Shown here: positions 341-8,295 of the stretch, one piece after another
Position numbering within the stretch: position 1 is the first letter of the stretch
Layout: each line of letters opens with the position of its first letter
Origin: an uncultured virus (IMG/VR IMGVR_UViG_2811995274_000001)
Lineage: Duplodnaviria > Heunggongvirae > Uroviricota > Caudoviricetes
Length of the DNA: 64,000 bases
IMG/VR virus record: IMGVR_UViG_2811995274_000001
Reading direction: 5' to 3' (one strand)
The notes under the pieces: generated by a model
Databases searched by the model: none
What the model saw: the letters and a program-made list of their open reading frames with translations, nothing else
What the model was told of the DNA's origin: nothing
Program-made: the position numbers and the translations under genes

Positions 341-369
341 TTGACTTTTTAATTAAAATAAATTAAAAT
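341..369 (+). promoter_or_regulatory. sigma70/sigmaA-like promoter pointing antisense into the 3' end of the RNAP gene
   Basis: TTGACT(341-346)-17 nt-TAAAAT(364-369). Confidence 0.55.
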
Positions 370-437: not shown

Positions 438-3400
438 TTAATCATTAAAAAGAGAACCACAAGCAGATTTAAGATCTTTTAATAAAGTACTTTCTTTTGC
501 TTGTGGCTTTTCTTTTTCTAATAAACTATCCATCATTTTTCTCATTAAAGTTGATGGCTTACTTATTGTTTCTTTTTTCACATTTTTATTCTTCTCGTCA
601 ACAATATTCTGATTATTTAGTTTATTTTCCATAGACTGCAATAGTTTAGATTTAGCCTCTACTTTACTTTCTATAACATTACTATCTATCTGAACATTGT
701 TTTCTTGAACAAATTTTATTTCTTCTTGGCTTGCTTCTTTAACGTTGGATAAAATACCTACACAAATATGAGCATTTCTTTTACCTTCGTTTTTGACTGA
801 GCCAGACACTGTAAGAGAAATAGTTCCTCTGAAATTATGATAAAGTTTACGTTCTAATTTACTATTAGAAACTTTAATACGGCCTATTCTAGTAGCTCTA
901 CCTGTTTTATCGATAATAGAATTAATTGTACCATTACCAGTTTTACCAGAAGCTGATAACATAACTTCAGCAGAAACACATAATTCATCAATGTCTGACT
1001 GAAGAACATTTTCAGAATCACTTTTATAATCATTAGTAATAAATAATCTTTGACTAAGATCTACTTCTGGAATTTGAATAAAGTCTTTAATAGGCTTTTC
1101 TATCCATACTTTTTCACCAATTACTTTGTCATATGAATATTTTGTTTTAAAGCTATTTTTAATATCTCCATAATAATTTAGATTTTTATTAGAGAAGCTA
1201 TGAATAACTTTATTTTTATAACATCTTTTAATGATTAATTCTTTTCTAAAAATAAATTCACCATTTAAAGATGCATCTGTAATAACCTTACCTCCTTCTT
1301 TATTGACACCAGTTCCATTAGTAAATATTATTTTATCTCCATCTTTACAATTTTCATAAGACAATACTTTATCTTTAGTCATACATGTTTCTGCATAATG
1401 ATCTAAAATGAATAAAATATATTCTTCTGGTAAAAGTTTTGCAATATAGTTAGTAGCACTAGCATCAAAGTTTATTTCGCCATTTTCTATATTTTCTTTA
1501 GCAACAGCAGCAAATAAACATGACATTTTATCGTCATTATCAACAATGCCTGCTTCTTTGAAGATAATACGAATATTATTAGCCAATACTTTGAACAATT
1601 CATTATATTTGTCATTAATAAATTGTTTTGAAGAAGAATCATCATCTTTAATTGAATTTAATTCTTTTATTTTAAGATTGTTTATATCTCCAAATATTTT
1701 TCTTTGAGAATAAATCGCATCAGATACTTCTTTTTTAATAGGATCTGATAAAGCTGATGATATTAAATTAATTACTAAAGGATCAACTTCTTGTTTTATA
1801 GATAATAATTTTTCAGCAGATTTTTTGATTTCATTAAAACCAGCTATTCTTGCATGCTGAATTATATCTTTTATCATTAAAGTGCTGGCATTATTCTTTT
1901 TATCAATAAAACCTGTATCATCTAAATCGATCACATATTTAAATTTTTGTTCTGTATCGTTCCACAAAATTTTAAAATCAATTTCTTCACGACTTTTTAA
2001 TTGAGCATATGGAGAAACTTCATATGGAATAATAAAATTATATGCATTTTTCACTGAATCAATAGTTAGTTCCTGATACATACGTTCAATAGATTGTAAT
2101 GTATCTAAAACTTTAATAGCATTAGCTATAGATGGTCTCATATGACAAGCAGCATAAATAACATTTTCAGCATATTCAATTGAAACAGTAGTGTATTTTA
2201 ATCCTTCTTTAGAAAAATTGATAGGTGCATATACGCCATCAAAATCTTCAAAATCTTTATCTAAACGACTTCCTGAATCATAAGTTTCATAACCGTCACC
2301 ATTAAAACCAAAAATAGTATAAAATGCATTAAATGCGTTTTCTTTTTCATTATCATTCCCATTCTTTAACAAACGAGCTAGTTCGATGAAAACTTCGTTC
2401 ATTACAGTTACTTGTCCTACATTTTTCATGTCTTCATTCATAGAATATTTAGCAAGCATACCCATACCGAGTGTAGAAGAATACATATGTTTAGACATAG
2501 TATTTGTTGGAGCTTTAATTTTAACAGCTAACATATCCAACTTACTAATAGTATCTACTACAAATTTATCATAGAAGCATTGAGCAGAATCACTATCAAA
2601 ATCTAATCCCGCCATCTGATTTTTTAACAATTCAATAGAAGGAATTACTAATATACCTTCTGAAGAATGACATGCATTAGTTTTAATAAATTCTTTTTCT
2701 ATTAAAGGTAAATTTAATTTATCAACTCTATTACAGTATTCTTCAATAGATACTACTTTGCATAACATAAATTCCTGTGTATGCATTTTAGGATATTTAA
2801 TACATACAAAATATTTAATACCCAATCTTTCAGCATGTGGACAAAGAACTTCAACATATTTTTTACCATTTTCTTCAACAATGCCTAAGATTTTAAGATC
2901 ATTATAAAATGTAGCTATATCAGGAGAAACCATTAAATAAGCACCAGATAAAGGTACAGTACAATTAGATACTCTATTAACAGAGCCTTTAATAAAGTTA
3001 TCTGCAAAAGATCTAAATAAATACTGATCTTTTGTTTTTACATAATTAGGAGCAATCTGCATTGCTATTGTTGCAACATCTAATGATAAATTATTAAAAG
3101 AATCTCCAGATATATTTTTCACCTTTGAATCATCAATAGAATTACGTCTAGACACTTCTTGTTGAACTAATTTATCAGTTAACCATGTAATAGTTCCTTC
3201 AGCATCTGCGGTAATCATGCTCTGAATTAATTGATTAGATGTTTTTCCTCCATCATCAGCTAATTTATCTGCATGACTAAATTTTAATATGTGCCAATTG
3301 GAATCCGTTTTTAGATCCCAAGAAATCTTAAGACCATTTAAATCAACAAAAGCATCGATAATATTATCGTTATCAAATGGATCATAGTCTTTGTCACAAA

Positions 3401-4691
3401 CAATAACAATTTTGTCAGCATAAATACCTTCTCCGTATTTAACTCCTAAATCAAAATTATCTTGAATGTCTTCAGTAATTTTATCTTTATATAAAACTAC
3501 TATTTCTTTTTTCATATTTTTTACTAGATATTTTATTTCTTTTGCCTGAACAAATCTAGCTTTTGTTTTAAACCCAGCAAAAGGTCTATTCTGTGCATGT
3601 ACACCTATTAAACTATCAGAAGTAACAGCATACTTATTTGGTTGTTCAGCATTAATAGCTTGAGCTAAAGATTCAGCAGCACCTAAATGCTCACCGTCCA
3701 TCCATTCGTTACCTTCTTTATCAGCAAATTTACCCATATAAACAGCAACTGCTTTTAAATGGAATTTTTTACTATCCCATAATCCAGTAGATGGTTTAGC
3801 TAATGATAATCTATTTGCGAGGCCAGCTATCTTTTTAAGAGATAATTCTTTTCTTTTATTAAAAATACTTTTATATGTTCCATTAGTATCTTCATAAAAT
3901 CTTTCTTTTAGTCTTTTAACATTACTTGCTTCTGGAATAGTAAGAGTATATGCTTTCATCTGAGAAGCAGATGAAGATTGAAAACCAATAGTTTCGCCAT
4001 TTTCATCTTTTACTAAAGATTTACCTAATGGATACACTAATATACCTAATTTATATTTGTTGTTTTCATCAACAAAATATTTTGCCTTCATTACAGATAA
4101 AGTTTTATATGTTTTAAAACCATTTTTAGTTTCATGTGCAGGACGATCATCAATTCTAATAAAATGTTCATTACCGTCTTTTGTAGACGTATGCAAAACT
4201 ATTCTCATATTTGCAGTACCAGCACCATAAATCAAAATAGCGTGAGCATTCATCATTTGAATAGCACTATTTTTTCCTACTATTTTTAACTGTATTTCGT
4301 CAAAAGTGAATCTTTTTACATGATTCATTTTGCGATTAACTATATCCCAACCACCAATATTAGTATCGGTTTTCTTTTTATTCCAAGTTGCATCTCCAAA
4401 TTGAGTTATTACATATTCATTTTGAATACGTAAATTATGACTCATTCTATTCCATGCCTGAGACACTATACGACAAGAGAAATGTCCTAATAACATTTTG
4501 TTTTCTTTGTTATTGTTTTTAAAATCAGCTGTAATTTCTAAGATATTATAACTTTTGCCTTCTCTTTTTAAGAATATAGCACTGTTCTTTTCAAAATAAT
4601 GTTGATTGTTAAATACATATAAATTTTTCATAGTAGCAGCATCTCCTTCACTAATGTTGTTAATAGTTTTTGTTTCATTAATGTTTTTCAT
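438..4691 (-). CDS. single-subunit two-barrel RNA polymerase, YonO / eukaryotic RdRP-like family (probable non-virion phage RNAP)
   Basis: 1417 aa; ordered motifs WMDG, QNRPFAGFKTKA (cf. QIR..G.KG), IKYP (cf. KNP/RNP), AGLDFDSD (catalytic DxDxD, nt 2589-2603), VGQVT, TIDSVKN (cf. avD.pK). Confidence 0.85.
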   Translation of the reverse strand: MKNINETKTINNISEGDAATMKNLYVFNNQHYFEKNSAIFLKREGKSYNILEITADFKNNNKENKMLLGHFSCRIVSQAWNRMSHNLRIQNEYVITQFGDATWNKKKTDTNIGGWDIVNRKMNHVKRFTFDEIQLKIVGKNSAIQMMNAHAILIYGAGTANMRIVLHTSTKDGNEHFIRIDDRPAHETKNGFKTYKTLSVMKAKYFVDENNKYKLGILVYPLGKSLVKDENGETIGFQSSSASQMKAYTLTIPEASNVKRLKERFYEDTNGTYKSIFNKRKELSLKKIAGLANRLSLAKPSTGLWDSKKFHLKAVAVYMGKFADKEGNEWMDGEHLGAAESLAQAINAEQPNKYAVTSDSLIGVHAQNRPFAGFKTKARFVQAKEIKYLVKNMKKEIVVLYKDKITEDIQDNFDLGVKYGEGIYADKIVIVCDKDYDPFDNDNIIDAFVDLNGLKISWDLKTDSNWHILKFSHADKLADDGGKTSNQLIQSMITADAEGTITWLTDKLVQQEVSRRNSIDDSKVKNISGDSFNNLSLDVATIAMQIAPNYVKTKDQYLFRSFADNFIKGSVNRVSNCTVPLSGAYLMVSPDIATFYNDLKILGIVEENGKKYVEVLCPHAERLGIKYFVCIKYPKMHTQEFMLCKVVSIEEYCNRVDKLNLPLIEKEFIKTNACHSSEGILVIPSIELLKNQMAGLDFDSDSAQCFYDKFVVDTISKLDMLAVKIKAPTNTMSKHMYSSTLGMGMLAKYSMNEDMKNVGQVTVMNEVFIELARLLKNGNDNEKENAFNAFYTIFGFNGDGYETYDSGSRLDKDFEDFDGVYAPINFSKEGLKYTTVSIEYAENVIYAACHMRPSIANAIKVLDTLQSIERMYQELTIDSVKNAYNFIIPYEVSPYAQLKSREEIDFKILWNDTEQKFKYVIDLDDTGFIDKKNNASTLMIKDIIQHARIAGFNEIKKSAEKLLSIKQEVDPLVINLISSALSDPIKKEVSDAIYSQRKIFGDINNLKIKELNSIKDDDSSSKQFINDKYNELFKVLANNIRIIFKEAGIVDNDDKMSCLFAAVAKENIENGEINFDASATNYIAKLLPEEYILFILDHYAETCMTKDKVLSYENCKDGDKIIFTNGTGVNKEGGKVITDASLNGEFIFRKELIIKRCYKNKVIHSFSNKNLNYYGDIKNSFKTKYSYDKVIGEKVWIEKPIKDFIQIPEVDLSQRLFITNDYKSDSENVLQSDIDELCVSAEVMLSASGKTGNGTINSIIDKTGRATRIGRIKVSNSKLERKLYHNFRGTISLTVSGSVKNEGKRNAHICVGILSNVKEASQEEIKFVQENNVQIDSNVIESKVEAKSKLLQSMENKLNNQNIVDEKNKNVKKETISKPSTLMRKMMDSLLEKEKPQAKESTLLKDLKSACGSLFND

Positions 4692-4734
4692 AATAAATAA
4701 CCTCTTTTTGTTTATTTTTTTGTGACCTGACTTC

Positions 4735-4763
4735 TTGACTACCGCTTTTCTCCGTTTTATAAT
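4735..4763 (+). promoter_or_regulatory. sigma70/sigmaA-like antisense promoter (cassette 1)
   Basis: TTGACT(4735-4740)-17 nt-TATAAT(4758-4763). Confidence 0.75.
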
Positions 4764-4775
4764 ATTAATAGAACA

Positions 4776-4812
4776 TATGGAGAAGCAGTGAAATAGTCAC
4801 TACTCCTCCATA
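4776..4812 (-). terminator. 16-bp stem hairpin downstream of small peptide 1
   Basis: TATGGAGAAGCAGTGA / TCACTACTCCTCCATA; both mismatches are G-U in minus-strand RNA. Confidence 0.65.
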
Positions 4813-4823
4813 CATAACAAATT

Positions 4824-5003
4824 CTATTTCTTTAAAGTTATGTGAAATAACAATTTAGTTAATTCAACTTTAACTTCAAGATGGTTGAACTTATTATGTT
4901 TTGTTGTATTATCTACTATTATTAATAGCATGATTAGACATACCATTGTAAAAATAGTAAAGACAAATAAAACAAAAAGTTCTATCAATCTTACTATGTC
5001 CAT
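4824..5003 (-). CDS. small membrane peptide 1 (59 aa), type I toxin-like or leader peptide
   Basis: RBS GAAAGGAGATGATTCCA-ATG; one long hydrophobic helix then a basic C-terminal tail. Confidence 0.7.
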   Translation of the reverse strand: MDIVRLIELFVLFVFTIFTMVCLIMLLIIVDNTTKHNKFNHLEVKVELTKLLFHITLKK

Positions 5004-5029
5004 TGGAATCATCTCCTTTCGGACATAAC

Positions 5030-5064
5030 AAAAAGAACCTCATGTGCGGATAAGGTTCTTTTTT
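5030..5064. terminator. bidirectional intrinsic terminator
   Basis: AAAAAGAACCT...AGGTTCTTTTTT. Confidence 0.7.
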
Positions 5065-5092
5065 ATTTTCTTAAGGTGTTTCAACCATATTG

Positions 5093-5740
5093 TTATTTAT
5101 TTAAATCAGAATTTAAAGCATATATTGCTTTACGAATATTGTGTTCTGTCTCGATTTCCTCATCTAAATCTTTTGAATTATGATAATTTTTGTATAATTC
5201 TAATGGTAAAGAAACAAAAACCTTATCATCATCTTTTGTCCCTAAATACTCAGCAAATCTATTAGCGTCAATCTCAAGTGGACATTTATCATATAAAGAA
5301 AAATAAGTATTTCTATTATCATCTATCATCCACCACATATATTCTTCTTTTAAATTATGATATTGCCAATGATGTCTTAGTTCATGCAGTACTAAAACAA
5401 TAAATATTTCTGTATCAGTACTTAAACATACTATAGCTGTTTTTCTTTGTTTTACTATATTTTTTAAATTGAATCTAATTGTGCAAGTATCATAAGAATA
5501 AGTACCACAAAAGGCTTCATTTAGTTCTTCATCTAATATTAATTTGGGTACATTAAGTCCATATTTTTTACAAAAAGATTTAGCAATTTCATCATAAATA
5601 TTTGTCATTAATTCTTCTGTAAGTTCTTCATCTTTTAAATCATTAATTAGTTTATAAATAACTTTAAAGAATGAACGACTATATACAGATACTCTAATTC
5701 TTTTTATGATTGTTCCTATAAATGATAATACTTTTAACAT
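5093..5740 (-). CDS. HExxH zinc metallopeptidase-like protein A (~215 aa)
   Basis: HELRHHWQY plus downstream PLEIDANRFA; start moved to ATG 5740 because of RBS AAAGAGGT. Confidence 0.75.
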   Translation of the reverse strand: MLKVLSFIGTIIKRIRVSVYSRSFFKVIYKLINDLKDEELTEELMTNIYDEIAKSFCKKYGLNVPKLILDEELNEAFCGTYSYDTCTIRFNLKNIVKQRKTAIVCLSTDTEIFIVLVLHELRHHWQYHNLKEEYMWWMIDDNRNTYFSLYDKCPLEIDANRFAEYLGTKDDDKVFVSLPLELYKNYHNSKDLDEEIETEHNIRKAIYALNSDLNK

Positions 5741-5758
5741 AATAAAACCTCTTTCTGA

Positions 5759-5787
5759 TTGATTTTTATTGTTCCATAGCTTAGAAT
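5759..5787 (+). promoter_or_regulatory. sigma70/sigmaA-like antisense promoter (cassette 2)
   Basis: TTGATT(5759-5764)-17 nt-TAGAAT(5782-5787). Confidence 0.65.
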
Positions 5788-5803
5788 ATAAATATATACG
5801 ATA

Positions 5804-5830
5804 GAAGGAGAGGATTACTCCTCTCTCTTC
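5804..5830 (-). terminator. hairpin whose loop contains the stop codon of peptide 2
   Basis: GAAG-GAGAGGA-TTAC-TCCTCTC-T-CTTC. Confidence 0.55.
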
Positions 5831-6000
5831 CAGCAACAATTACAGTTGCATTTGTCATTATCAAATTCAATAGTAAACGATGGGTGAACAAGGTCTACAC
5901 TGAATTTAAAATGACTAGAAGAAAAGTCATTCCATAGTAGTATTAGGATTAATACTACAAATAGAATGGCTTTCATTCTATCGTATCTTTTATTGTGCAT
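5815..6000 (-). CDS. small membrane peptide 2 (61 aa), type I toxin-like or leader peptide
   Basis: RBS GAAAGGAGGTGATTCCA-ATG; KRYDRMKAILFVVLILILLW..SSSH; paralog of peptide 3. Confidence 0.7.
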   Translation of the reverse strand: MHNKRYDRMKAILFVVLILILLWNDFSSSHFKFSVDLVHPSFTIEFDNDKCNCNCCWKREE

Positions 6001-6040
6001 TGGAATCACCTCCTTTCAGTAAAAGATACGAATATTATGA

Positions 6041-6514
6041 TTATTTTATTAATTTATCTATTGAATTAGATATGCCAACAACTACATCAAATCCGTCAGC
6101 AACACTATTTGACGTATATACAGTAATTGTATTAGTTTCTTTATCAAAGCTAACACAATTACTACCTGTATTAAAATTAACATAATATTCTTTGTAATGT
6201 TTTATACTTTTATATGTTAAATCTGGACATTCTCCTTCTACGATGATTATAGTTGAAGTTTCAATATTTTTATTTTTCAATTTTGATTTACAATCAACAA
6301 TAACTTTTGCTATAGACTGAATCTCTTTATTATTAATCATTCTGTCTGTATTGCAATAGCTATTCTCTAATACAGAAAGAATGTTTATATAATGATTTTG
6401 CAACATTAATTCTTTAGATCCTTCAGAATTAATATTGGCAGTTTTGCAACCACTTAAAACAATACAAACCATAACGATAACCATAACAATAACTTTTACT
6501 AATAAATTTTTCAT
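6041..6514 (-). CDS. lipoprotein (~157 aa)
   Basis: start ATG 6514 with RBS AAAGAGGT; signal peptide MKNLLVKVIVMVIVMVCIV followed by lipobox LSGC. Confidence 0.75.
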   Translation of the reverse strand: MKNLLVKVIVMVIVMVCIVLSGCKTANINSEGSKELMLQNHYINILSVLENSYCNTDRMINNKEIQSIAKVIVDCKSKLKNKNIETSTIIIVEGECPDLTYKSIKHYKEYYVNFNTGSNCVSFDKETNTITVYTSNSVADGFDVVVGISNSIDKLIK

Positions 6515-6556
6515 AATAAATAACCTCTTTCTTTTAAATAAAATAATAATAATGAT

Positions 6557-6585
6557 TTGACCTTTTAAACTTAATAGCGTAGAAT
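6557..6585 (+). promoter_or_regulatory. sigma70/sigmaA-like antisense promoter (cassette 3)
   Basis: TTGACC(6557-6562)-17 nt-TAGAAT(6580-6585); shares ATAGCnTAGAATATAAATAnATAC with cassette 2. Confidence 0.7.
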
Positions 6586-6609
6586 ATAAATACATACAGA
6601 AGACTAGTA

Positions 6610-6635
6610 AGGAGCCAATTATAAAACTGACTCCT
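6610..6635 (-). terminator. hairpin downstream of peptide 3
   Basis: AGGAGCCAATT-ATAA-AACTGACTCCT; mismatches are G-U in minus-strand RNA. Confidence 0.55.
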
Positions 6636-6648
6636 CATTAATGTTAGC

Positions 6649-6795
6649 TTATTTATCGAATATTAAATGTAATGTTGATGGTCCAACACTAATTTCAAAT
6701 TCGATATGACTAGAGCTACAGGTTAAATAAATCACTAGTGCGATAGCGACTATAAAACTTATAGCTATTAGTCTTCTGTATCTTTTAAATCTCAT
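6649..6795 (-). CDS. small membrane peptide 3 (48 aa; not in the ORF track)
   Basis: hand translation MRFKRYRRLIAISFIVAIALVIYLTCSSSHIEFEISVGPSTLHLIFDK; RBS GAAAGGAGGTGATGCTT-ATG. Confidence 0.75.
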   Translation of the reverse strand: MRFKRYRRLIAISFIVAIALVIYLTCSSSHIEFEISVGPSTLHLIFDK

Positions 6796-6831
6796 AAGCA
6801 TCACCTCCTTTCAATATGTGTACATAAAAAA

Positions 6832-6893
6832 TTGACCTCTTTTTTTAATAGATATATACTTAAATAAGATATAAACTATTAAGAAAAGAGGTC
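6832..6893 (+). promoter_or_regulatory. promoter embedded in an 18-bp inverted repeat
   Basis: TTGACC-17 nt-TATACT (6832-6860); IR arms 6834-6851 and 6876-6893 with 1 mismatch. Confidence 0.6.
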
Positions 6894-6900
6894 TTATAAC

Positions 6901-7221
6901 ATGTTTGATAGAATTTTAGATAAAATATTTTCAAAAAATGTTAAACCAGATAAAAATGTTAATTATCCAGAACGATATACTATATGTGTCATGGATAAAG
7001 AAATAAATAAAAAAAAGAAACCTCTTAAATTAAGCGATTGGCTCAAAATATATATTTTTCTCAATAATTTTGAGCCAAAACGTCCGCCAAAGATTTACAA
7101 GCATCCATTAAAAAACCTTGTTGATAAGCCTGTTCGACCTTTTCGATTGGCAAAATATCAAAAACTTCACCGTTATAAGATTCCTTATTGGATGCAAATA
7201 ATCGAGCGTCAATCTCAATAG
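6901..7221 (+). CDS. basic hypothetical protein, convergently overlapping peptidase B
   Basis: own promoter and AAGAGGT RBS; 161-nt overlap with 7061-7522. Confidence 0.45.
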   Translation: MFDRILDKIFSKNVKPDKNVNYPERYTICVMDKEINKKKKPLKLSDWLKIYIFLNNFEPKRPPKIYKHPLKNLVDKPVRPFRLAKYQKLHRYKIPYWMQIIERQSQ

Positions 7222-7522
7222 GAGCAAACCAATACAATTCTTTATATAATTCATCATAATGGTCCATCCACCACATATAATCTTTATGTCTATGAGTCCA
7301 TTGCCAATGATGACGAAACTCATGATGTAGAGCATTAAAAAACTCTTTTTGACCATGCAATTTATTAGGATCTAATAAAATTACATGATTTAAATAATCG
7401 TAATGTCCGATATATGGACCTTCTTTTTTACCTAATACTAATTTAGGCAAATTAGTATTATATTTTATTGATAAATTTATTAATTCTATGTTTAAAGCTA
7501 ATTTAAGTCTAAATATTTTCAT
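7061..7522 (-). CDS. HExxH zinc metallopeptidase-like protein B
   Basis: HEFRHHWQW...PIEIDARLFA; paralog of 5093-5740. Confidence 0.75.
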   Translation of the reverse strand: MKIFRLKLALNIELINLSIKYNTNLPKLVLGKKEGPYIGHYDYLNHVILLDPNKLHGQKEFFNALHHEFRHHWQWTHRHKDYMWWMDHYDELYKELYWFAPIEIDARLFASNKESYNGEVFDILPIEKVEQAYQQGFLMDACKSLADVLAQNY

Positions 7523-7554
7523 AAAGATTACTTCCTTTCTTTTTTAATTAAATA

Positions 7555-7563
7555 TGTTATAAT
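7555..7563 (+). promoter_or_regulatory. extended -10 antisense promoter (cassette 4)
   Basis: TGTTATAAT; -35 weak. Confidence 0.5.
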
Positions 7564-7581
7564 GTTTATGTGGATAATTAG

Positions 7582-7609
7582 AAAAGGGCGATGCTACCGA
7601 CATCGCCCT
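7582..7609 (-). terminator. intrinsic terminator after peptide 4
   Basis: AGGGCGATG-7 nt-CATCGCCCT, followed by a T-run on the minus strand. Confidence 0.7.
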
Positions 7610-7616
7610 ATACCAA

Positions 7617-7766
7617 TTACTTAAACCATATCTTGATAGCATTAGTTGCTATTTCGATATGATCTATCATCAAAATTTTTATAGCTATTGCTACTCCAAT
7701 AACAAATGAGCTAATAAAAACTTCAATGGCAATTGGTTTTCTAAATATCCATATGAATTTTTCCAA
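7617..7766 (-). CDS. small membrane peptide 4 (49 aa), type I toxin-like or leader peptide
   Basis: RBS GAAAGGAGATGGTACCC-TTG; hydrophobic core IAIEVFISSFVIGVAIAIKILMI. Confidence 0.65.
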   Translation of the reverse strand: MEKFIWIFRKPIAIEVFISSFVIGVAIAIKILMIDHIEIATNAIKIWFK

Positions 7767-7935
7767 GGGTACCATCTCCTTTCTTTTTTTTATTAAATTT
7801 TCAACACGAGAACCTACCCCGGGGGCTAGAATTCTCACATCAAAAATTTTCATATAAGACCTGGTACCCTCAGAAAAATTTTATAAAAATTAAAACTATA
7901 TATGATTTCCTACTATTTTAATATGAAATAAAAAT

Positions 7936-7980
7936 AAAAACCTAGTTGAGTATCAATTAAAATACTTGACTAGGTTTTTT
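7936..7980 (+). terminator. terminator at the strand switch (probably bidirectional)
   Basis: AAAAACCTAGTTGAGTAT...ATACTTGACTAGGTTTTTT. Confidence 0.7.
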
Positions 7981-8031
7981 GTTATTACAGATAAAAAATG
8001 CGTAATAAATTGTTAAAGGAGGGTAAATAAT

Positions 8032-8295
8032 ATGTCTAATTTAAAAATTAATAATAAAATAGAATTAAATGGTCGTTTTACTGTAGAAAGAAAAAAGGAC
8101 ATTAATGCTAATCCAGTAATAATCTATAGAACAGGAGTTTTAGAAATTCCTAAATACATAGATGAAATAAAGACAATTGAAAATGATAAATATAAAATAA
8201 ATGGAATAAATGTATATAAAGAAACATTTGTATCTGAAGAAGATTATATTGCATACGAATTTAAGTTTGATGAAATATTTATAAAAGATAACTAG
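8032..8295 (+). CDS. hypothetical protein
   Basis: 87-aa ORF with AAAGGAGGG RBS. Confidence 0.75.
   Translation: MSNLKINNKIELNGRFTVERKKDINANPVIIYRTGVLEIPKYIDEIKTIENDKYKINGINVYKETFVSEEDYIAYEFKFDEIFIKDN

Follow-up and report, generated by a model that had tools for sequence, protein, structure and literature searches.

A tandem array of membrane-peptide cassettes with structured sense RNAs and opposing promoters in an operon of a large uncultured phage

Peptide cassettes and their opposing promoters

This study concerns an array of four small cassettes in a 64,000-nucleotide stretch of DNA from an uncultured virus of the Caudoviricetes (IMG/VR record IMGVR_UViG_2811995274_000001), to which we refer, at its full length, as the window. 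The cassettes sit in a leftward operon on the minus strand, which begins near position 7900 and extends beyond the start of the window. Read 5' to 3', this operon contains peptide 4, an HExxH-motif protein (A), peptide 3, a lipoprotein, peptide 2, a second HExxH-motif protein (B), a hairpin, peptide 1 and a 1,417-residue protein. A first-pass annotation made from the sequence alone had described each cassette as an open reading frame (ORF) for a single-pass membrane peptide with a near-identical leader, followed by a hairpin and an opposing promoter and placed directly upstream of one larger gene, and had offered two interpretations, a tandem type I toxin-antitoxin (TA) array or a repeated leader-peptide switch. 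We recovered this architecture at all four sites, and the interpretation as a whole is partly supported. The four ORFs are as follows.

4824-5003, minus strand: peptide 1 ORF, 59 residues; leader 5001-5020
5815-6000, minus strand: peptide 2 ORF, 61 residues; leader 5998-6017
6649-6795, minus strand: peptide 3 ORF, 48 residues; leader 6793-6812
7617-7766, minus strand: peptide 4 ORF, 49 residues, TTG start; leader with Shine-Dalgarno (SD) sequence 7764-7783

Each peptide contains one hydrophobic stretch of 19 residues with a mean Kyte-Doolittle value of 2.0 to 3.1, and with 48 to 61 residues all four are of the kind that characterizes type I TA systems, namely small (less than about 60 residues), hydrophobic and membrane directed. 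The shared leader is a highly specific mark. The pattern GAAAGGAGRTG-N6-DTG has four matches in the window, which are the four ORFs, against 0.10 expected, and none of 100 shuffled sequences reached four; the SD sequence is perfect, with a spacing of 9 nucleotides (nt), in every cassette. Two related genomes, G004 (221,928 nt) and G002 (193,057 nt), have three and four matches, respectively, all of them within the array, and a reversed-leader control gave none in either. Because the leader is confined to the array in these relatives, it marks these ORFs and is not a general ribosome binding site (RBS) of the phage.

The coding frames are also maintained. Peptide 1 and its variant in the related contig L028 differ at 48 of 177 nucleotides (27%), with no stop codon and no indel, and the annotated frame is the only one open in both diverged forms, the five others being filled with stops; the proportions of replacement and silent differences per site (pN/pS) for this pair are 0.236/0.412, a ratio of about 0.57. 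Peptides 2 and 3, previously called paralogs, share 35% identity in alignment. Replacements within the peptide families are mostly of the conservative I/V/L type, and length is kept among family members apart from the C terminus of peptide 2. Within cassette types, the 1 to 9 substitutions per pair make dN/dS uninformative. By these sequence features, the four ORFs look translated.

The promoters on the opposite strand were found where the first-pass annotation had placed them, three with 17-nt spacing and one with an extended -10 element, each downstream of a peptide ORF and facing it, as in convergent type I modules. Two further sites of this kind lie in the same operon.

4735-4763, plus strand: promoter 1, TTGACT-17-TATAAT, 11 of 12 consensus positions
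5759-5787, plus strand: promoter 2, TTGATT-17-TAGAAT, facing cassette 2
6557-6585, plus strand: promoter 3, TTGACC-17-TAGAAT, facing cassette 3
7555-7563, plus strand: promoter 4, extended -10 element TGTTATAAT, facing cassette 4
341-369, plus strand: fifth promoter, TTGACT-17-TAAAAT, with a hairpin at 392-414 on the minus strand, after the 1,417-residue gene and without a peptide
From 6832, plus strand: sixth promoter, TTGACC-17-TATACT, within an 18-bp inverted repeat (6834-6851 / 6876-6893)

Taken as a class, sigma-70-like sites show no enrichment in the region (27, versus 36.9 ± 4.8 in shuffles). The strict pattern TTGA-N19-TANAAT shows only a mild excess in the window, with 9 sites versus 5.7 expected and 10 of 100 shuffles reaching 9. 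As the class is not enriched, the case for these promoters rests on position and conservation and not on counts. With respect to position, four of the nine strict-pattern sites are plus-strand sites between 341 and 6585, and each of the four comes directly after a hairpin of the minus strand. With respect to conservation, both hexamers of promoter 2 are invariant in all eight distinct sequences (12 instances), with 7 of the 17 spacer positions varying; promoter 3 occurs as TTGACC/TAGAAT, TTGATT/TAAAAT and TTGATC/TAAAAT with differing spacers; and TGTTATAAT of promoter 4 is invariant in five of five distinct relatives, among which the sequence upstream is unrelated. Relatives that differ downstream of cassette 1 lose similarity a few bases upstream of the -35 hexamer of promoter 1. 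Hexamers and 17-nt spacing are thus kept in five sequence-distinct versions with diverging spacers, and conservation stops at the outer edge of the promoter. A plus-strand ORF at 4885-5028 (47 residues) behind promoter 1 was considered as a gene and rejected, as it has no SD sequence and stops break its frame in L028.

The hairpin and opposing promoter, present in all four peptide cassettes, are nevertheless not exclusive to them, since a fifth copy follows the 1,417-residue gene. Its hairpin, 23 nt past the stop codon, has 9 bp with one G-U pair (in the sense strand only) and a U-rich stretch after it; the RBS of the adjoining leftward gene lies beyond the promoter, and the same module is present in relative L001. 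The promoter at 6832 heads a small ORF (within a module at 6832-7221) of 106 residues here and 56 to 91 residues in relatives. The N-terminal 35 or so residues of this ORF are conserved (M[FL]D[KR]I..KI...KPDK..DIP), and the remainder is antisense to the 3' end of the local HExxH gene; a module of this type recurs after every A-type HExxH gene in L001, L003 and L028. Together, the peptide-free copy and the 6832 promoter indicate that opposing host-type promoters are a general feature of the operon, in which we found no sigma-70-like promoters in the sense direction.

Comparison of close relatives shows what is inherited together. Window positions 4708-4948 have no match in L003, in which a different peptide (MNIKRYDRV...) stands between identical flanks and brings its own hairpin, its own matching pairing boxes (X and X', described below) and its own promoter, TTGATT-17-TAAAAT. 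This block exchange identifies the ORF, hairpin, X' and opposing promoter as the unit of inheritance. As a whole, the array is a mosaic when close relatives are compared, and the breakpoints fall at the shared leader and at the RBS of the cargo genes. A given cassette can stand before different cargo genes, and a given cargo gene can follow different cassettes. In L041 (700-960), the 5' untranslated region (UTR) of cassette 3 is joined to the peptide 2 ORF at the leader, a chimera that documents recombination within the shared leader.

Fold of the sense RNA and the clamp on the start region

A hairpin follows each of the four peptide ORFs. It starts 7 to 11 nt after the stop codon in all cassette types or, in cassette 2, holds the stop codon, and the tails beyond the hairpins are U-rich.

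4776-4812, minus strand: hairpin H1 of cassette 1 (helix 9), four pairs changed on both sides
5804-5830, minus strand: hairpin H2 of cassette 2, peptide 2 stop codon in the loop; G-C to A-U compensatory change in L037
6608-6637, minus strand: hairpin H3 of cassette 3, two G-U pairs in the sense RNA only
7585-7609, minus strand: hairpin H4 of cassette 4, a canonical intrinsic terminator with 10 pairs, 6 of them G-C, followed by TTTTCT

Folding of both strands confirmed that the stem mismatches in cassettes 1 and 3 are G-U pairs in minus-strand RNA only: the sense hairpins have 16 and 13 uninterrupted pairs, respectively, whereas their antisense versions are interrupted. Terminator-like scoring selects H4 among the four, and in its L003 variant the stem is kept intact by sense-RNA pairs of the U-G and G-U type. 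The stop codon in the loop of H2 is lost or moved in relatives. Close by, at 5833-5849, the CNCNCC codons of peptide 2 form a 5-bp hairpin of their own, which is terminator-like on the plus strand and lies about 40 to 55 nt past the predicted antisense start.

The predicted structure is not limited to these hairpins. Over a span from the leader to 75 nt beyond the stop codon, the minimum free energy (MFE) of the sense RNA is -72.5 to -88.9 kcal/mol in the four cassettes, with z scores of -6.4 to -10.3, and the antisense strand folds more weakly (-51.5 to -74.5 kcal/mol, z -3.8 to -6.7). In a coarse sliding scan of the minus strand, with rough z scores from 12 shuffles per scan window, z fell below -4 in 15 of 48 scan windows, 13 of which overlap cassettes, and the strong signals coincided with the cassettes rather than with the cargo genes.

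For cassette 1, the fold could be evaluated by covariation, using four and then eight aligned sequences that include the L028/L038 lineage with its 27% ORF divergence. Among 103 predicted pairs, 11 have changed on both sides and still pair, and 13 have changed on one side through G-U. Six control structures slid by 1 to 3 columns gave 0 to 2 double changes, shuffles gave a mean of 3.6, and none of 500 shuffles reached 11; 96.8% of the individual cells are paired, versus 40 to 55% when the structure is slid. In the eight-sequence alignment, one hairpin pair is G-C in four sequences and A-U in four, in two separate lineages. A single compensatory change, G-C to A-U, occurs in helix 1 and two changes (A-U to G-C and G-U to A-U) in helix 3, and hairpin 1 has further compensatory G-C to A-U changes in L042 and L044. 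The L037 change in hairpin 2 also alters the peptide, from E to K. In cassette 4, 13 pairs show one-sided changes compatible with G-U and none shows a double change, and E to G and V to I replacements have occurred via G-U intermediates with pairing kept; 14 pairs are broken in at least one sequence, several of them in the hairpin loop region, which is misaligned by an indel. Since the one-sided changes give wobble pairs in the sense RNA only, the selected fold belongs to the strand of the peptide mRNA.

When the 5' UTR is included in the fold, all six cassette types share a single plan. The SD sequence and start codon are either bound by a 5' arm or enclosed in a stem that this arm closes; a box X within codons 3 to 10 or so pairs with a box X' directly after the hairpin; and both arms adjoin on one continuous stretch of the mRNA. 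In the window, the elements are located as follows, all on the minus strand.

5020-5030: 5' arm of cassette 1, pairing with 4992-5002 and enclosing the SD sequence and start codon
4979-4989 / 4764-4774: X / X' of cassette 1; X-X' is helix 3, with covariation
6020-6030: 5'-UTR arm of cassette 2, pairing with 5982-5992
5970-5991 / 5791-5812: X / X' of cassette 2; repeat I17, 22 nt, 82%; X' overlaps H2
6766-6786 / 6589-6609: X / X' of cassette 3; repeat I19, 21 nt, 86%
7862-7880: 5'-UTR arm of cassette 4, pairing with the start region 7756-7774; inverted repeat I23, 19 nt, 89%
7565-7585: X' of cassette 4, complementary to codons 3-9 (7737-7757); repeat I21, 21 nt, 86%

The cassette 4 arm pairing is present both in the MFE structure and in the consensus structure of five relatives. 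X and X' differ between paralogous cassettes in a matched fashion, and in five of the six types the tail favors its own 5' coding region, with cognate duplexes of -13.6 to -19.8 kcal/mol versus a non-cognate mean of -7.2 (standard deviation, 2.6). The cognate duplex is -19.8 kcal/mol in cassette 3, with none of 500 shuffles as low, and -13.8 kcal/mol in cassette 4, with 3 of 500 as low. Cassette 2 is the exception under the uniform definition of the tail (-6.6 kcal/mol, 233 of 500 shuffles as low) because its X' overlaps the base of the hairpin; here, the X-X' pairing is indicated by repeat I17 and the fold. Since the 5' arm and X' of cassette 2 compete for six bases, alternative states are possible in this case. 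On these models, the peptide mRNA may be held translationally inert by its own structure.

Contigs assembled from RNA libraries, in four runs (X15 to X18) from three studies, provide a further view of the cassettes, although such contigs carry no strand, reliable ends or expression level. They lie on the four cassettes and are short (142 to 376 nt), apart from one of 1053 nt; gaps in their cover over the cargo genes (X15, X17 and X18) were not counted as evidence.

Cassette 1: 4782-5036 (X15), 4870-5036 (X17), 4806-5033 (X18)
Cassette 2: 5777-6103 (X15), 5725-5913 (X16), 5818-5926 (X17)
Cassette 3: 6608-6808 (X15), 6597-6800 (X17), 6608-6739 (X18)
Cassette 4: 7601-7880 (X15), 7601-7835 (X17), 7601-7872 (X18)

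Recurrent contig ends at 5033-5036 (three runs, two studies), 6597-6608 and 6800-6808 are weak hints of RNA ends, as strain variation can also break contigs. The cassette 4 contig of X15 (343 nt, depth 460) is circularly permuted with a cycle of 313 nt, and its joint links 7880 with the counterpart of 7567, exactly where a nick is predicted between X' and the 5' arm. At two positions, the five letters at the joint are unlike the tails of all relatives examined, and they are perfectly complementary to the start-region splint. This joint fits a perfect-clamp strain variant whose RNA ends were ligated in the cell or the library, and it also fits a templated fill-in before joining, reverse transcriptase switching between juxtaposed ends, or a tandem duplication in that strain; all four options place the module boundaries at the ends of the arms. 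An Rnl2-type RNA ligase (PF09414), a possible circularizing enzyme, was found in none of three related records, two of which are incomplete. The X18 contig of cassette 3 continues after 6739 with about 44 non-templated, A-rich letters, which may be a 3' tail on a plus-strand (antisense) RNA or the result of a chimeric contig.

The carrier phage and the cargo genes

The window has a G+C content of about 27%, and its proteins have PHROG matches to large terminase, portal, major head protein and tail sheath. These structural matches, together with three ORFs of 2132 to 2933 residues on the plus strand beyond 8 kb, identify the carrier as a large myophage. The long ORFs are three consecutive genes at 36369-59758 in the structural region (2132, 2933 and 2668 residues), of which the third alone has a PHROG match (phrog_20474, annotated as endolysin, residues 1913-2356). 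Close relatives are contigs of 87 to 303 kb from gut-type metagenomes, and window positions 4600-8100 had no blastn match among 50,697 phage records. Between the leftward operon and the rightward genes, at 7936-7979, lies an 18-pair, A/T-flanked hairpin that is terminator-like on the plus strand and contains TTGACT. The remaining features of the operon are listed below.

7061-7522, minus strand: HExxH protein A, downstream of cassette 4
6041-6514, minus strand: lipoprotein with lipobox LSGC, downstream of cassette 3
5093-5740, minus strand: HExxH protein B, downstream of cassette 2
5030-5065, both strands: bidirectional terminator-like hairpin between HExxH protein B and cassette 1, seen in sequence and fold
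438-4691, minus strand: 1,417-residue RNA polymerase (RNAP)-like protein, downstream of cassette 1

The 1,417-residue protein had been named an RNAP by the first-pass annotation. It has no match in Pfam or PHROG. A DxDxD motif (DFDSD in the window) is invariant among 11 homologs, and with a model of residues 480-1000 (mean predicted local distance difference test score, 63), nearly all of the best Foldseek rows were two-barrel RNA polymerases (QDE-1, RDR2, Pol II/IV/V and gp96 of phage P23-45), at a weak best E value of about 7e-3. Its assignment as a two-barrel RNA polymerase is thus weakly supported. A distant counterpart in G002 (L028, 11101-13122 onward) is split into two ORFs of about 673 to 682 and 805 residues with 25 to 29% identity, and its metal motif reads DCDGD.

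The HExxH proteins belong to a family of 145 to 215 residues with an invariant HE.RH.WQ ... WW ... E.DA..F signature, present in two copies in the window and in up to four copies per relative (L001, L003 and L028). They had been called peptidases, a putative label drawn from the invariant HExxH...E..DA motif alone: no Pfam family scored above its cut-off (best, DUF6782, E = 0.006), and a profile of the paralogs gave no match at E ≤ 1 among PDB sequences. A distant HEFRHHWQ homolog occurs in L035, an unrelated phage contig of higher G+C content, with no cassette nearby.

Interpretation of the array

Type I TA modules are known from plasmids, chromosomes and temperate phages, and txpA/RatA and bsrG/SR4 of Bacillus subtilis are convergent (3'-overlapping) modules of this kind from Bacillota prophages. 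Both modules are named in PMC6733600, and temperate phages of Clostridioides difficile with several convergent type I modules each, in which AGGAGG lies 7 to 8 nt before the ATG, are described in PMC7699646. In the hok and aapA families, according to PMC6733600, a long-distance 5'-3' interaction makes the toxin mRNA translationally inert, and transient 5' hairpins and covariation go with it. Like txpA/RatA, bsrG/SR4 and the CD0977.1/RCd11-type modules of C. difficile phages, the cassettes encode small hydrophobic peptides behind a consensus AGGAGG-type SD sequence, have a sigma-A-type promoter just past the ORF that would fire back over its 3' end, and occur several to a phage genome; peptide 1 also has the hydrophobic N terminus and lysine-rich positive tail of such toxins. 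Unlike those modules, the cassettes alternate with cargo genes in an operon, and their carrier is a very large myophage with an RNAP-like gene and not a known temperate phage. With hok/sok and aapA/IsoA, they share a long-range, covariation-supported 5'-3' pairing in a small-toxin-type mRNA, local 5' hairpins that form first and a highly compact RNA. However, the 3' box of the cassettes pairs with early codons and not with the SD sequence, with a separate 5'-UTR arm on the start codon; the antisense RNA is predicted to begin at the 3' end and not over the translation start; no mok-like overlapping frame exists, the other five frames being closed; and there is no Hok homology.

We tentatively favor, at somewhat less than an even chance, the interpretation that the cassettes are type I TA-like modules that combine a locked peptide mRNA with an antisense RNA made by the host RNAP. 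In this scenario, each cassette would be a self-contained RNA module within the operon of a large myophage that encodes its own two-barrel RNA polymerase. A sense RNA of about 250 to 315 nt would carry the perfect SD sequence and the ORF of 48 to 61 codons for a single-pass membrane peptide, with its start region clamped from both sides, by the 5'-UTR arm on the start and first codons and by X' on codons 3 to 10 or so. Behind X', at the outer edge of the module, the sigma-A/sigma-70-type promoter would fire back into it. The clamped RNA could then be a long-lived, translationally inert store of a membrane-active peptide, and the antisense RNA transcribed by host RNA polymerase from the opposing promoter would pair with the 3' hairpin, X' and the ORF, leading to silencing or cleavage of the message. 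Peptide would be made only once the clamp opens, by 3' trimming or unwinding, and the antisense supply falls. The peptides may be toxic, and the cassettes may serve in the timing of membrane damage, in addiction or in exclusion. As the phage apparently has an RNA polymerase of its own, the sense and antisense RNAs may come from different enzymes.

The TA-like layout proposed by the first-pass annotation is thus real, nonrandom and conserved as a unit, and the clamp, a feature characteristic of type I toxin mRNAs (PMC6733600), can be added to it; what it lacks is homology to txpA, bsrG or any toxin family. This and several further points weigh against a TA function. None of the four peptides has a Pfam family at E ≤ 0.01, NCBIfam gave only noise (E = 0.008 to 0.12, far below cut-offs) and PHROG had no family above noise, which places the peptides outside the type I toxin families covered by those libraries. 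Both peptide families are limited to this phage clade (8 and 4 protein clusters); for peptide 1, tblastn against the same 50,697 phage records gave no match at E ≤ 10, and the best ESM Atlas score was 0.85, in unnamed clusters. The toxin-typical hydrophobic N terminus with a positive C-terminal tail is found in peptide 1 only, as peptides 2 and 3 have positive N-terminal and acidic C-terminal flanks. Peptide 2 ends at 56, 61, 74, 82 or 88 residues as stops in or near the hairpin loop shift, and in cassette 4 replacements occur as often as silent changes (e.g., 8 versus 1), so the RNA fold, more than the peptide, may be the chief constraint in these places. The covariation in cassette 1 comes essentially from two or three lineages. 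With respect to the antisense half, its RNA is predicted from sequence; the fold persists in the L028/L038 form of cassette 1, whose promoter is reduced to a -10-like TATAAT and a poor -35; no clear plus-strand terminator lies close behind promoters 1 and 3; and the peptide-free copy after the 1,417-residue gene suggests that the promoter may be general punctuation. Furthermore, no sigma-70-like sense promoter was found upstream of cassettes 1 to 3, in a search that would not recognize a promoter of the phage RNAP, and the cassettes, in contrast to TA loci that stand on their own, lie within an operon, with cassette 1 directly following a terminator. We hold back from a firmer assignment because antisense RNA and toxicity are putative, homology is absent, the locus is not autonomous, the promoter is not peptide specific and one lineage lacks it.

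Three other explanations account for parts of these data. The cassettes could be leader-peptide attenuators, in which translation of the ORF, at a frequency set by the clamps, decides whether the hairpin forms and hence whether transcription or the message survives into the downstream gene. The true intrinsic terminator after peptide 4 is what such a switch requires, the highest contig depth, on cassette 4, is as expected of a terminated leader transcript, and the placement of the hairpins at 7 to 11 nt past the peptide stops or around the stop itself, compared with 23 nt after the 1,417-residue gene, the U-rich tails and the freely varying C terminus of peptide 2 all agree with it. Direct sequence support for the switch once proposed for every downstream gene is nonetheless confined to one cassette in four, the other three hairpins not scoring as terminator-like, and no alternative antiterminator pairing was identified. 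Moreover, the same cassette occurs with different cargo and vice versa, which means that it is not tuned to what follows; a pure leader would need neither a membrane segment in all peptides nor a peptide 1 frame kept open across 27% divergence; and the opposing promoter is left without a role. We consider attenuation unlikely. We give a similarly low probability to a second explanation, in which the repeated elements are regulatory and recombination punctuation of a hyperplastic region, as in the PeSL cassettes of T4-like phages, and the peptides are ordinary accessory small membrane proteins.

According to PMC2839356 and PMC4122927, PeSLs are sigma-70-like promoters with stem-loops that shuffle small ORFs, and our array resembles them in having such elements between genes of a small-ORF-rich variable region whose modules are swapped by close relatives at conserved linkers. 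Here, the hairpins would be 3' stabilizers or attenuators, the opposing host-type promoters would be insulators or a general antisense brake on an operon transcribed by the phage RNAP, and the repeated leaders and RBS blocks would be linkers for modular shuffling. The mosaic structure with breakpoints at leaders and cargo RBSs, the L041 chimera at the leader, the hairpin and opposing promoter after the 1,417-residue gene, and the promoter in an 18-bp inverted repeat after A-type genes are all in line with punctuation. However, PeSL promoters are described as driving early genes of the phage itself, whereas the five promoters here all run counter to the genes; the stem-loop is part of the sense RNA, with G-U pairs in that strand only, and the start region of the ORF itself takes part in the structure. 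Punctuation also leaves unexplained the covarying 5'/3' clamp on each peptide start region, the genome-wide restriction of the leader to these ORFs and the travel of the promoter with the peptide as one block. A third explanation, which we regard as very improbable, would make the cassettes structured noncoding RNAs, for example RNAs that act in processing or stability or that have some independent function, and the ORFs by-products of an AT-rich helix with purine/pyrimidine patterning. Its appeal lies in the extreme fold across the whole ORF (z down to -10.3), in the tolerance of amino acid changes where pairing is kept, as in L037 and cassette 4, and in the CNCNCC codons of peptide 2 that are themselves a hairpin. 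It is difficult to reconcile with a perfect SD sequence at 9-nt spacing in four of four cassettes, with the annotated frame alone staying open in both diverged forms of cassette 1, and with the membrane-grade segment, the conservative replacements and the preserved length of the peptides; Rfam, in addition, offers no family near its gathering score (four matches at E ≤ 1, best E = 0.13).

The permuted X15 contig, with its joint at the predicted nick, led us to consider one elaboration of the TA-like interpretation, which we judge quite improbable. The cassettes would be cut or trimmed from the phage-RNAP transcript as end-clamped, circularizable RNAs whose 5' and 3' ends adjoin on the start-codon region, which would serve as their splint, so that membrane-peptide messages would be stored in a pseudo-circular or circular, exonuclease-proof form. 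With the sense RNA supplied by phage RNAP and the antidote by host RNAP, host shut-off would time the release of the peptide.

The combination of an end-to-end lock as in hok with a 3' antisense promoter in the Bacillota style would be novel. So would its context, an operon in which a very large phage carries four such modules in tandem, each ahead of a cargo gene; none of the papers listed in our literature searches describes an array of this kind. If the TA-like interpretation is correct, a tandem type I TA set in the promoter-proximal operon of an RNAP-bearing large phage would be new, and this phage would use two transcription machineries as the halves of a switch, phage RNAP for the sense and host RNAP for the antisense RNA. 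The array would also be a natural source of orthogonal RNA locks, four to six in number, each with its matched key. Even if the peptides prove to be nontoxic, the cassettes present a covariation-supported mRNA structure that spans whole ORFs and is under selection, in regulatory modules that are shuffled as units between phages.

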